This document shows positions 48,486 through 60,718 of a stretch of 64,000 nucleotides of DNA, in pieces. The notes under the pieces are model-generated. The model saw only the letters and a list, made by a program, of their open reading frames with translations. It was not told the origin of the DNA and made no database searches. Both the position numbers and the translations under genes were made by a program. Source of the DNA: Escherichia virus TH57; sequence record MT446422.1; one strand, given 5' to 3'. Position 1 is the first letter of the stretch; every line of letters starts with the position of its first letter.

Positions 48486-48560
48486 GGCCCTTTAGCTCAA
48501 TGGGAGAGCTGTCAGCTCATAACTGATAGGTAGCTGGATCGAAACCAGCAAGGGCCACCA
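48486..48560 (+). tRNA. tRNA with anticodon CAT (Met, or Ile if lysidine-modified)
   Basis: hand-folded cloverleaf: acceptor GGCCCTT/AAGGGCC, D stem GCTC/GAGC, anticodon stem GTCAG/CTGAT with loop CTCATAA, T stem GCTGG/CCAGC, encoded CCA. Confidence 0.8.
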
Positions 48561-48564
48561 AACG

Positions 48565-48641
48565 CGGGGTGTAGCTCAATTGTATAGAGCAACGGTCTTC
48601 TAAACCGTAGGTTGTGGGTTAGAATCCCACCACCCCGACCA
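48565..48641 (+). tRNA. tRNA-Arg (anticodon TCT)
   Basis: hand-folded cloverleaf: acceptor CGGGGTG/CACCCCG, anticodon stem ACGGT/ACCGT with loop CTTCTAA, T arm GTGGG-TTAGAAT-CCCAC, encoded CCA; T4 also carries tRNA-Arg(UCU) here. Confidence 0.8.
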
Positions 48642-58068: not shown

Positions 58069-58560
58069 ATGAATATATTCGAAATGTTACGCATAGATGA
58101 AGGTTGTAAGTTGGATTTGTACCGTGACACCGAAGGCTTTTGGACCATCGGCATCGGTCAATTGATAACTAAGAACCCATCGAAAGACGTTGCTCGCGCT
58201 GAGCTGGACAAATTAATGGGTCGTGTTTGCAACGGTAGGATTACCCAGATTGAAGCTGAAACCTTGTTTAACCGTTCAGTGGAAAAAGCTAAAGCCGGAA
58301 TCTTGAAACATCCTGTCTTAAAACCTGTTTATGATGTACTGGATGAAGTTCGTCGTTGCGCACTCATTAATATGGTATTCCAAATGGGTGTAGCTGGTGT
58401 AGCTGGTTTTCCTAAGGGGCTGCGATTGCTCAAGGCTAAATCATGGGAAGCTGCTGCTAAGGAACTGGCTGACTCAAGATGGTATAAAGTCCAGACTCCG
58501 AACCGGGCCAAACGAGTTATTGAAACTTTCCGTACTGGAACTTTTGACGCATACAAATGA
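58069..58560 (+). CDS. e: endolysin (T4 lysozyme, gene e)
   Basis: 163 aa; [12 protein letters not shown]...DTEG..TIGIG...[13 protein letters not shown]...NRAKRVI.TFRTGT.DAYK matches T4 lysozyme with Glu11, Asp20, Thr26. Confidence 0.95.
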
Positions 58561-58616: not shown

Positions 58617-59033
58617 ATGACTCGCATTAATTTAACCCTGGTATCTGAACTCGCTGACCAACATCTTATGGCTGAATATCGTGAACTTCCTCGCGTGTTT
58701 GGTGCTGTTCGTAAGCATGTGCAAAATGGTAAAAAGGTGTCTGACTTTAAAATCCCATCATCTTTTCTTTTAGGGACTGGCCATGTCACCTTCTTTTATG
58801 ATAAGCTTTTGTTCCTTAAAAACAGGCATCAAGAACTTATTGCGGAATGTTTAAAGCGAGGGTTTAACATAAAAGATATTTCTACCCAAGATTTAAATGA
58901 TATTCCTGATGAATGGAAGAATGATTATCAACCATCAATCTGGTCAATTGAAATCAGTCAAGCCAGACTGAATGAGAAAATTTCTCAAAAGCCTACCTGG
59001 TACAAATACTATGGGAAAGCTGTGTACGCTTAA
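58617..59033 (+). CDS. denV: endonuclease V (pyrimidine dimer DNA glycosylase/AP lyase, DenV)
   Basis: 138 aa; [35 protein letters not shown] matches remembered T4 DenV. Confidence 0.95.
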
Positions 59034-59081
59034 CTAAAAAGGTTGTATAATGATTTTATCAACCAAACAATGGAATATAAA

Positions 59082-59396
59082 ATGAAAACTTATCAAGAAT
59101 TTATTACTGAATCTACCCAAAAACGTGTTGAAGGCGGTTATGTCTGGATTGAACAATTAACCCCACCAAGTGAAACGAGCACGGGTTCGTGGAAAATTAC
59201 TGTTGATGGCCCTGGTGGAAAACGTAAGACTATTAAAGAAATTAAAGGCTATTATGATGAAGCCAAATCATGGGCTGGTAGTCATGTAATGCAGATTAAA
59301 ATTGCAAACCCGGATAACGTTCATGCGGCAAAAGCATTCCGTCGCATTGGTAATAAACTTTATGATGCGTTTTTGCGTGATTTCCCTAAAGAGTAA
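59082..59396 (+). CDS. internal head protein-like protein (CTS-bearing)
   Basis: N-terminus MKTYQEFITE from ATG at 59082. Confidence 0.65.
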   Translation: MKTYQEFITESTQKRVEGGYVWIEQLTPPSETSTGSWKITVDGPGGKRKTIKEIKGYYDEAKSWAGSHVMQIKIANPDNVHAAKAFRRIGNKLYDAFLRDFPKE

Positions 59397-59409: not shown

Positions 59410-59673
59410 ATGAAAACTTATCAAGAATTTATTACTGAATCTGCTAAAGCTCCTACCGGTGCTTTTAAAGTCCGCGCCTTCGCTGGTGATGCTGAAGACT
59501 TTGGCACCATGAAGCGCAATGGTTATTCTTTCTTTGGTGGCGATGGTAAAGAAATTGTTACCTATGCAAAACGCCGCGAAATCGCATTCGTGGTTGCTGG
59601 TAAGAAAGTTGATGTTGACGATATTGAATGGGATTTTGATACCTTTGGTATTGTTTCTGGCGGTAAAGCATAA
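59410..59673 (+). CDS. internal head protein-like protein (CTS-bearing)
   Basis: N-terminus MKTYQEFITE; paralog of 46381..46680. Confidence 0.7.
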   Translation: MKTYQEFITESAKAPTGAFKVRAFAGDAEDFGTMKRNGYSFFGGDGKEIVTYAKRREIAFVVAGKKVDVDDIEWDFDTFGIVSGGKA

Positions 59674-59675
59674 CT

Positions 59676-59704
59676 GTTTACTTTATGATGGGATAGTGTA
59701 TAAT
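59676..59704 (+). promoter_or_regulatory. sigma70-type early promoter (best match in window)
   Basis: GTTTAC, 17-nt spacer, TATAAT; -10 inside GGGATA/TATCCC inverted repeat; conserved leader. Confidence 0.65.
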
Positions 59705-59729: not shown

Positions 59730-60029
59730 ATGAAAACTTATCAAGAATTTATTACTGAAGCCAAAGCTCCTAAAGCATTTCAAATTGGGGTTCAGGGTAA
59801 TTTAGACCAACAATACGTTGATGCTATTGTAGCAAGCCTCGGCAAGCAGGGTGTACAAGTGGATTTGGTTGATTTTACTAAAGGTAATACTTTTAATATT
59901 GTCACATCTAAAGGTTCTTTAGCTAAAGTTAAAAAGGCCTTTGGCGTAGCACAAGCATATGAAATCGACCATTCCGAATTGGAAAATAAAGGTCGCCAGA
60001 ACACAATTAAAGGCTCTGGTTCTTTCTAA
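59730..60029 (+). CDS. internal head protein-like protein (CTS-bearing)
   Basis: N-terminus MKTYQEFITE. Confidence 0.7.
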   Translation: MKTYQEFITEAKAPKAFQIGVQGNLDQQYVDAIVASLGKQGVQVDLVDFTKGNTFNIVTSKGSLAKVKKAFGVAQAYEIDHSELENKGRQNTIKGSGSF

Positions 60030-60190
60030 TAAAGGCAAGCCGGCCCTCTCCTCATGAACGTCGCGTCCTCTGAGTGATGGACCTTTCCCTACCTGTAATA
60101 AGGTCGAGCCCGAGTGCGGTAAGGGGTTTACATTCGGATACATGGACGAATTAATGTGCCAAGGAATGGCCCTACAACTAAGAGACAACT

Positions 60191-60718
60191 ATGAAATTTT
60201 TAACTCCAATTTATCTAACCTTAATGCACGCCTTCGCTGAACGCGCCATTGAACGCTTAGATTCAGACCAATACACCTGGTATGAACCCGCTTCAAGAAT
60301 GCAAGAGTTTGGTACTCTTCGACTTGATGGTGGTCGTCAAACAGGTAAAACAAGTGCCCTTGCACAGTTCGCTGCGGATTGGGTTTCCAAGGGTAATGAT
60401 GTGATTGTTATGTCGAGTTCTTCACATCGCTCCCGAGAAATCTGTGATATAATAAAGCGGGTTTCTAAGGCGCAACCACATCTTAATGTTGAGCGACCTG
60501 GTTTTGTTGTATATGATACTGTTCGTTCATTTTTAGACGAAGATAATTTCCATAAGTACCGTGGATTGCGTTTTACGCGTCTTTTAATCATTATTGAAGA
60601 ACCTATTCGCCTCCCTACAATGGATAAGTTCTATGAAGCTTATCAGGTAATGATGAATAAATTTATGTGTCAAGGTGATAAGCCTTTGCCGTTATTCTTT
60701 GTGATAGGAATGCAATAA
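60191..60718 (+). CDS. hypothetical P-loop NTPase-like protein
   Basis: 175 aa; Walker A-like GGRQTGKTS and hydrophobic strand + acidic residues (LLIIIEEP) consistent with Walker B. Confidence 0.5.
   Translation: MKFLTPIYLTLMHAFAERAIERLDSDQYTWYEPASRMQEFGTLRLDGGRQTGKTSALAQFAADWVSKGNDVIVMSSSSHRSREICDIIKRVSKAQPHLNVERPGFVVYDTVRSFLDEDNFHKYRGLRFTRLLIIIEEPIRLPTMDKFYEAYQVMMNKFMCQGDKPLPLFFVIGMQ

Follow-up and report, generated by a model that had tools for sequence, protein, structure and literature searches.

Two small stable RNAs, rnaC and rnaD (species 1 and 2), are encoded within the tRNA cluster of bacteriophage T4; they are matured by the host tRNA-processing enzymes and their roles are unknown (PMC3014915, PMC9697503). 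According to a 2010 review, no riboswitch or trans-acting RNA of T4 has been functionally characterised (PMC3014915). The put RNA of phage HK022 is a folded, protein-independent phage RNA of approximately 70 nucleotides (nt), whose sequence (putL/putR) is constrained by a host machine (PMC9378689). Here, we describe an element located in a 161-nt intergenic gap (positions 60030-60190) of a 64,000-nt stretch of DNA (64 kb; hereafter the window) of Escherichia virus TH57 (accession no. MT446422.1). The source belongs to the VR7/JS98/SP18 group of T4-like phages, with 91-95% identity to those genomes over the 4 kb around the site. The gap separates an ip7-like open reading frame (ORF; 59730-60029, stop codon TAA at 60027-29) from a vs.8-like gene (ATG at 60191), the gene names being taken from the closest relatives, VR7 and SP18. 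An initial annotation, made from the letters alone, had placed a noncoding segment of about 160 nt between a cluster of internal protein (IP)-like genes and a P-loop protein gene, and these boundaries were borne out. The element is very probably a functional structured RNA encoded by the plus strand. Its core belongs to a widespread, unannotated family of phage noncoding RNAs (ncRNAs), which is new among the phage-encoded structured small RNAs.

The element resembles rnaC and rnaD in being phage-encoded, small and structured, and its relatives outside the T-even phages lie within or near groups of tRNA genes, in the same orientation as these. Unlike these RNAs, it has no tRNA-like T-arm or acceptor end, its distribution is far wider, and in T4 it lies approximately 6 kb away from them, between denV and vs.8. 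Homology to rnaC, prompted by the common strings CCGAGU, UUCGGAUA and AUGGCC, was rejected by model and profile searches: the core model (R1) matches only the denV-vs.8 copy in the T4 locus, and a profile of the 3′ domain of the element (nhmmer) gave no match to rnaC at E ≤ 10. With rnaD, too, there was no match and no similarity in sequence or structure. With putL/putR of HK022 the element shares the properties of a protein-independent, folded phage RNA composed of adjacent stem-loops. However, put is located at the head of an operon and acts on downstream terminators, whereas the element often precedes a fresh promoter or lies within tRNA arrays; there was no model match in the 22-37 kb region of HK022.

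Structure of the core module

The core ncRNA module (60029-60129, plus strand; full-length match to model R2, 115 bits) is the part common to all other phage families, and comprises helices P1-P4. R2 is a 101-position model built from T-even sequences, which recovers all clades and underlies alignment A3 (50 sequences). The core alone is represented by R1 and by the gapless alignment A1 (49 columns, 40 distinct sequences). In the predicted fold, a long-range helix (P1) surrounds a variable hairpin (P2), and P3, placed directly after P1, closes a near-invariant junction of approximately 33 nt. The parts of this junction are (i) a probable hairpin, ACCU-GUAAUA-AGGU, (ii) the linker CGA, (iii) a hairpin of 2-3 bp with a free loop and (iv) the linker GGUAA.

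P1 pairs AAAGG (60031-60035) with CCUUU (60082-60086). Searching without a model for helices that directly adjoin the core with their 3′ strand, we detected a P1-type helix in nearly all homologues, with about 20 different complementary sequences, e.g. AAAGCUA/UAGCUUU, AAAGA/UCUUU, GGGAA/UUCCC, GGGAG/CUCCC, GGAAC/GUUCC, GAAUGU/ACAUUC, UGAGUG/CACUCA and AAACAC/GUGUUU. The four inner pairs are a mixture of AU, GC, UA and CG, with 0-1 unpaired among the 50 sequences of A3. The P2 hairpin, located inside P1 (60051-60074), is formed by CUCA (60051-54) and UGAG (60071-74), and has an inner hairpin (60056-59/60065-68). The sequence of P2 is swapped wholesale by clade: CCUCA/UGAGG in T4, CCUUA/UAAGG in L061 (homologous loci and contigs are referred to by such designations), CCAACAA/UUGUUGG in L042, and CACAU/AUGUG and CUACG/CGUAG in rV5-like phages. 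Both strands have been shortened together in L013 (CUA/UAG), and the Psg-like clade lacks P2, its P1 being a simple hairpin.

P3, which closes the core, pairs CCCU (60087-60090) with GGGG (60123-60126). In A1, Watson-Crick or wobble combinations number four, four and two at the three best pairs of P3, and 0-1 cells are unpaired: AU 25, UA 6, UG 6 and CG 3 at pair 7-40 (none unpaired), CG 28, UA 6, GC 5 and AU 1 at pair 6-42 (none unpaired), and CG 29 and GC 10 at pair 5-43. In CC31, CUGG/CCAG replaces CCC/GGG. The sequence enclosed by P3 is near-invariant (ACCUGUAAWAAGGUCRAGC-loop-GCGGUAA), and 22 of the 49 columns of A1 do not vary in the 40 sequences. Its first part, ACCUGUAAUAAGGU (60091-60104), probably forms a hairpin (P3a) in which ACCU and AGGU close the hexaloop GUAAUA (60095-60100; GUAAAA or GCAAAA in some clades). 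As an alternative, ACC could pair with GGU at 60118-60120. P3a is favoured because its A-U pair changes to G-C in two independent lineages (3 of 50 sequences; Melville type and the second copy in L043).

The mini-hairpin P4 (60108-60117) consists of GC (60108-09) paired with GC (60116-17) and a variable loop (60110-15), flanked by the invariant CGA (60105-07) and GGUAA (60118-22). The closing pairs are GC/GC in 23 unique sequence types and GU/AC in 6, which is a compensatory change; the third pair varies (G·U, A-U, G-C, C-G or U·G), as do the sequence and length of the loop. A first register of P4, CGAGC/GYGCG, was dropped in favour of the one of 2-3 bp once divergent homologues appeared. Further candidate pairings, of the 5′ junction CCUCUCC with the 3′ GGAAUGG or of the 5′ end with the terminal GGCCC, have two invariant partners each.

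In A3, 88.6% of the cells are paired (75.7 ± 0.6 in shuffles), and double-change cells number 152, as compared with 51.5 ± 5.5 in shuffles and 5-53 with the partners slid; the core alone (A1) gives the same picture. A structured RNA, one of the explanations offered in the initial annotation, is strongly supported by these compensatory base changes, which occur in at least six clades. The pairs also carry a strand signal, with GU 33 and GC 15 at one pair of A3 and UG 7 at another. Since on the opposite strand these G·U pairs would be A·C, the functional molecule was assigned to the plus strand, i.e. the sense of the flanking genes.

The rV5-like versions (L026 8465-8500 and 8590-8625; L002 2420-2460) contain a motif repeated on both sides of the core, i.e. 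a hairpin CCC-N-UAGA-GGG followed by CUUGAWAGUGC, as well as several hairpins with GACG-type loops.

Distribution of the element

The numbers of phage records matched by BLAST were 1,026-1,103; the search with the segment alone (171 nt, BLASTN), as advised by the initial annotation, gave 1,026. Near full-length matches were found in the VR7/JS10/SP18 group, Klebsiella Jiaodavirus, Citrobacter phages Moon and Merlin, and Kosakonia phage 305. In Tequatrovirus (T4, T2, RB10, AR1 and others) the central and 3′ parts match with approximately 82% identity, the parts matching in CC31, Serratia X20 and Salmonella Melville are the 5′ and central ones, and in the rV5-like Vequintavirinae (Murica, V18, nomo) a core of 35-40 nt matches at approximately 90%. 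Queries from other clades added the phAPEC8-like 150-kb phages DE16, phiWec188/190 and PsgM04F, the 70-kb siphophages Pylas and KpCHEMY26, and smaller Klebsiella phages. Pattern scans, confirmed with the core covariance model, added viral and metagenome contigs, including one of 360 kb and several unassigned clades. No bacterial or archaeal carrier was found by pattern scan in 185,579 species genomes, and there was no BLAST match in 5,426 complete genomes of E. coli. On this evidence, the element belongs to virulent phages.

This occurrence in unrelated phage families implies that the module has spread horizontally among them. The initial annotation had considered a horizontally acquired remnant; horizontal spread is in keeping with the data, but the module is under strong purifying selection with covariation and is not decaying. 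Two tandem copies of the core are located between denV and vs.8 in the 177-kb T-even contig L043 (5091-5250, minus strand): the first is CC31-like, and the second, which is shorter, has GCCU/AGGC and a P4 of GUC/GAC. L088 also contains two tandem copies (830-878 and 916-963), one of which has GCAAAA instead of GUAAAA.

The host labels of some carriers may be unreliable. In the region of the element, OR584014.1 (L033, "Pseudomonas phage PsgM04F") shows approximately 83% identity to the L039 query, as do the Escherichia phages DE16 and phiWec188/190, and 9-18 of the BLAST matches are records labelled "Campylobacter". In contigs L099 and L088 the neighbouring genes resemble those of Pseudoalteromonas phages. 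The two isolates examined, H40/1 and PHS21, lack the element, so that a host range beyond Enterobacterales is at most a possibility.

Genomic context in other phages

Outside the T-even phages, the element lies on the tRNA strand, within or beside tRNA arrays. A same-strand location in a tRNA cluster was found in the phAPEC8-like, Pylas-like, jumbo and other contigs, approximately so in the rV5-like phages, and not in the window or other T-even phages. In the phAPEC8-like L033 the element is placed between tRNA-Thr and tRNA-Gly, after six tRNAs and at the end of the unit. It also lies between tRNAs in L094 and L090, and 20-45 nt from a tRNA in L073 and L076, the whole unit between two tRNA-like genes of L073 being only ~110 nt long. 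Longer distances were found in L039, L044, L045, L047 and L063 (150-350 nt upstream of tRNA genes) and in rV5-like phages (~550 nt upstream of tRNA-Arg/Tyr). In the 47-kb siphophage contigs the element and the tRNAs downstream of it (tRNA-Arg, Met and Ser) form a reverse-oriented insert between the head and tail genes. The window has only two tRNA genes, tRNA-Met(CAU) and tRNA-Arg(UCU) (48486-48641; ARAGORN), and the same pair adjoins the element in siphophage contigs L039, L044, L045 and L047.

Within the phAPEC8/Pylas group, the element is placed at the tip of a conserved stem, GUUGUGA(C)/(G)UCACAAC, an arrangement typical of RNAs excised from a precursor. This stem alternates with covarying stems of 10-13 bp, which hold other conserved RNA cargo. 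A boxA-like UGCUCUUA in the phAPEC8-like group turned out to be one strand of a covarying long helix and not a conserved boxA.

Arrays of RNA cassettes, beginning ~130 nt before the element and extending to 190 nt after it, were observed in phAPEC8-like and Pylas-like loci (L033, L039, L044, L045, L047, L053, L057, L063, L070 and L082). Within the cassette stems, GGUAAGAGCAYUG...CAGUGCUCUUAUC or GGAAAUGGCG...CGCCAUUUCC, lies another conserved module (GGUUUACAUAGUGGACAUGAUUGCCAC...), which is faintly similar to the start of the T-even 3′ domain (GGUUUACAU...). These cassettes appear to be additional small RNAs that have escaped annotation.

In three lineages (L026 8633-61, L002 2617-45 and L033 1826-55) there is a near-consensus promoter within the 300 nt after the element. 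In rV5-like phages a strong sigma70 promoter also precedes it (L026 8428-56, 11/12 with TG). The rV5-like element is followed by a gene (L026 8691-9036; L002 2674-3012) for a small protein whose N-terminus, KKEKTKKRRRRGRPLKEE, is very basic; the RGRP of this protein resembles an AT-hook core. The gene is served by a strong promoter of its own, and the tRNA genes come shortly after it. The downstream partner of the element is inconstant, being vs.8 in the window, an IP-like gene in Klebsiella phages, a promoter and small basic protein gene in rV5-like phages, and tRNAs or RNA cassettes elsewhere.

The T-even 3′ domain and the start of vs.8

In the window the island is composed of two units placed end to end, the mobile and widely shared core (60029-60129) and a T-even leader of vs.8 (60130-60172, plus strand). 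The latter, a T-even-specific 3′ domain, contains a hairpin, ACAUUCG/CGAAUUAAUGU, presenting AUGGAC (60142-47), and a second hairpin, GCCA-AGGAA-UGGC (60158-70), followed by CC. Its last stem is replaced by CAGCA/UGCUG in X20. The nhmmer profile of the domain matched only T-even loci. In Klebsiella phages an IP-like gene is inserted between the core and vs.8. In one of them, JIPh_Kp122 (L003), the 3′ half of the leader is duplicated (2017-2051, directly upstream of vs.8), with the duplicated half (ACACGGAC...GCCAAGGAAUGGCCCC) present on both sides of the inserted gene, and this sequence arrangement suggests that the insertion may have arisen by recombination within the leader. Because its 3′ half recurs directly before vs.8, beyond the inserted gene, the 60130-60172 region was assigned to vs.8.

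The vs.8 gene of T4 (NC_000866) is annotated as encoding 219 aa, with its start 26 nt after denV, within the RNA element (L037 2768-2966, minus strand), which is read as the first ~40 codons. The annotated start of the CC31 gene (199 aa) is also located inside the element (L035 1332). However, protein homology of the 175-aa Vs.8 of the window begins at residue 44 of T4 Vs.8 (MRTFLTG...), there are in-frame stops in T2 and in the window, and the T4 frame is open only through a private 10-nt duplication. Neither a conserved frame continuous with vs.8 nor homologous residues were found for an N-terminus of the T4 type, and the gene starts over the element in T4 and CC31 are an annotation artefact. 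A match to a neighbouring gene in relatives, named in the initial annotation as evidence against its view, does formally exist here, as the 5′ end of vs.8, but it is produced by this artefact. The same annotation had stated that the segment contains no ORF. No frame stays open among the homologues (the open frame differs by clade, and 7 of 57 unique homologues have none), but mechanical ORFs of 89 aa (antisense, 59919-60188) and 32 aa (plus strand, 60142-60240) exist.

Similarity to known RNAs

A search of the whole window against Rfam 15, whose families include riboswitches, ribozymes, ToxI, 6S, SRP, RNase P, YrlA and leaders, detected only the two tRNAs at the gathering threshold; at E ≤ 10 the island gave two chance-level matches (E ~3), and at E ≤ 5 there was nothing on the element in eight homologous loci. 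ARAGORN found no cloverleaf on the island, and no Rfam tRNA model matched the island or its homologues at E ≤ 5-10. Likenesses to the UGUNR motif of the SRP Alu domain, the tRNA-Tyr anticodon arm and the D-arm of type II tRNAs are short strings lacking model support. The hexaloop GUAAUA closed by a Watson-Crick pair is identical to that of helix 44 in E. coli 23S rRNA, where we take it to occupy positions 1093-1098 of the GTPase-associated centre. Unlike helix 44, some clades have GUAAAA or GCAAAA, and the rest of the element has no likeness to rRNA. Across the whole E. coli rrnB operon the score of the core model never exceeds 6 bits, and mimicry of the 3′ end of 16S rRNA (GUAACAAGGU and h45) or of the 23S GTPase centre was rejected at the model level. 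As for a CsrA sponge of the CsrB/RsmZ type, GGA is missing from the invariant core, and several clades have no GGA loops; such loops are present only in the T-even 3′ domain (AUGGAC, AAGGAA). Our literature search found no described phage motif of this kind, and this absence is not proof of its being undescribed.

Proposed function and alternative explanations

We propose that the core may be a processed ncRNA that docks on a conserved host component, an interpretation of the sequence patterns that in our estimate is about evenly balanced between right and wrong. The plus strand of the element would be read as part of the ip7-to-vs.8 transcript. The host RNases of tRNA maturation (RNase P, Z, E and III) would then excise the module, which would be released, or persist, as a discrete stable RNA of approximately 100 nt. 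It could act in trans, its invariant junction serving as a docking surface for a highly conserved host macromolecule. A stable RNA is suggested because the element, as is usual for such RNAs, occupies processing-type stems or the gaps between tRNAs, and a universally conserved target because the core is invariant across phages with no other similarity. Given the tRNA company of the element, the most plausible target would be a component of the tRNA/translation apparatus, or an RNA-targeting host factor decoyed by the element. That it is a discrete trans-acting product, and not a cis regulator, is held with middling confidence.

Several observations weigh against this interpretation. Some concern the structure: the inner core varies too little to discriminate P3a from the ACC/GGU pairing, and A3 was fitted to the model, so that its pair counts lean towards the structure, for which reason the model-free P1 search and the gapless A1 serve as independent evidence. 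The folding energy of the single sequence is indistinguishable from that of shuffles on either strand (z = -0.91 and +0.26) and is uninformative; RNAalifold, applied to MAFFT alignments, recovers P2, P3 and P4, and not the AU-rich P1, and explicit pair counts were used in its place. Others concern the locus. The element of the window has no closing stem, promoter or terminator of its own, and other T-even phages are alike in this respect; the predicted transcript that contains it there is polycistronic and of the early type. It is not near tRNAs in T-even phages (11.5 kb from both tRNA genes in the window), it lies there directly upstream of a gene, with which a cis role fits equally well, and we found no paper reporting an RNA from the denV-vs.8 interval of T4.

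The alternatives that survive best, each of them unlikely, are a cis-acting leader and a decoy. In the former case the element would be a riboswitch-type aptamer or translational operator of the downstream gene, its junction binding a ligand or protein and its 3′ hairpins exerting control. An invariant pocket within covarying helices is the classic signature of an aptamer, and the element resembles riboswitch aptamers and Rfam orphan motifs in this, as well as in having been found by comparative signal only. Moreover, in T-even phages it is always directly upstream of a gene and is joined to a conserved hairpin leader that stops ~20 nt short of the vs.8 start, and two mutually exclusive pairings are available to ACC. 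Unlike riboswitches, however, it has no constant downstream gene or gene class and no expression platform: the downstream partner varies between clades, which argues against a gene-specific cis regulator, the core has no conserved terminator or anti-Shine-Dalgarno platform (and the window no terminator), and the 3′ leader accompanies vs.8 and not the core.

An RNA decoy of a host RNA-targeting or RNA-sensing defence, moving with phage tRNA islands, would be a special case of the trans model and is rated no higher than the leader. The T-even ip/vs region carries anti-defence genes. The core string CUGUAAA/U is presumably that of the E. coli tRNA-Tyr anticodon loop. A decoy would agree with the patchy distribution over unrelated virulent phages in accessory regions, with the tandem duplications in L043 and L088, and with the role of phage tRNA arrays as counter-defence loci (PMC13096335; bioRxiv 10.1101/2023.03.15.532788). 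On the other hand, the near-identical core in T4, rV5, 47-70 kb siphophages and the 360-kb contig points to a universal target and not to a sporadic defence, the flanking stem gives no 7-nt loop of the anticodon type, and there is no tRNA-model or ToxI-type match.

Still less probable is a cis-acting processive antiterminator, able to take bound host RNA polymerase across early operons or untranslated, structured tRNA arrays. The invariant core would be accounted for by the use of host RNA polymerase in all carrier phages, and the rV5-like element is located right after a strong promoter. We know of no resolved account of how T4 delayed-early transcription escapes Rho. The precedent, put, has in common with the element that it is a folded phage RNA (~70 nt) that needs no protein (PMC9378689), yet there is no similarity to the HK022 region holding it. 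New promoters less than 300 nt after the element in three lineages, and its position at the end of the unit in L033, after six tRNAs, argue against a put-like function, as does its presence within processing-type stems.

A new self-cleaving or catalytic RNA, processing polycistronic and tRNA transcripts, seems slightly more doubtful again. Its small conserved core, variable peripheral helices and position between tRNAs and other RNA cargo would suit a ribozyme, and other phage ribozymes are tRNA-associated. However, no ribozyme family of Rfam 15 matches even at E ≤ 5-10, the ~30 invariant positions, which include stems, exceed those of typical small ribozymes, and tRNA processing is already done by host RNases.

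It is very improbable that the segment is not RNA at all, i.e. that it is coding sequence (the N-terminus of Vs.8 or the 89-aa antisense ORF) or a DNA-level site (recombination, protein-binding or a compositional remnant), since, although T4 and CC31 have the element annotated inside vs.8, the antisense frame is open in the window and the conserved block marks a boundary of swapped upstream genes (ip7, denV, ipIV), Vs.8 homology starts only at T4 residue 44 with stops in T2 and the window, indels of 1-2 nt separate close relatives that have no common open frame, and the compensatory changes and G·U asymmetry require a single-stranded plus-strand molecule.

Organization and base composition of the TH57 locus

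All genes around the element are encoded by the plus strand: the lysozyme gene e (58069-58560), denV (58617-59033) and three internal-protein-like ORFs (59043-59396, 59410-59673 and 59730-60029) with the common N-terminus MKTYQEFITE, which we take to be the capsid-targeting sequence of T4 internal proteins. The downstream neighbour, outside the RNA, is the vs.8-like P-loop (terminase-ATPase-like) gene (60191-60718, 175 aa). A 2026 preprint (bioRxiv 10.64898/2026.04.30.721860) describes Vs.8 as an ATPase-like protein and reports toxicity of T4 vs.8 upon co-expression with the defence sensor EcAvs2. The gene upstream of the element varies among relatives (ip7, denV or ipIV), and the element therefore marks a gene-shuffling boundary. 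The closest upstream sigma70-like promoter match, TTTACT-16-TATAAT (59677-59704, plus strand), is a consensus match only, located ahead of the ip7-like gene, and is the likely source of the transcript carrying the element; the number of promoter matches in the region is equal to the shuffle expectation.

The average G+C content of the island is 50.9% over 161 nt, which is higher than that of the 64-kb window (40.8%; z = 2.2, top 1.5% of 161-nt windows). The richest 100 nt (60032-60131) have 57% (z = 3.0, top 0.1%) and the richest 60 nt 61.7% (top 0.05%). The initial annotation of a GC-rich island in an AT-rich genome is correct as to the deviation, but the enrichment is moderate and the genome less AT-rich than implied. 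The same annotation held that the segment was not a recurring cassette, and indeed the core covariance model R1 gives exactly one copy in the window (60084-60132, 68 bits).

Implications

Tentatively, the family might represent a new class, a horizontally mobile, RNA-only host-takeover factor (or a catalytic RNA) in the form of a ~100-nt three-way junction residing in tRNA islands. Such a factor, present in at least five lineages with no relationship to one another (T-even, rV5-like, phAPEC8-like, Pylas-like siphophages, the 360-kb jumbo contig and marine-type contigs), would dock on a core host machine, e.g. the ribosome, a tRNA-maturation or tRNA-modification enzyme, or RNA polymerase. If this is true, it would be the first functional non-tRNA RNA of such a type in phage T4.

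An RNA far more conserved than rnaC/rnaD has been hidden under a mis-called vs.8 start in T4, one of the most studied genomes, and the gene models of vs.8 in T4 and CC31 are corrected accordingly. The core is shared nearly base for base with phages otherwise unlike T4, and such invariance normally marks contact with a core machine. The family offers an experimental handle in its defined helices, natural minimal versions of ~100 nt flanked by tRNAs, and natural duplications. It bears on the role of the non-tRNA RNAs of phage tRNA islands, and suggests that phage tRNA loci hold further unannotated RNA cassettes.

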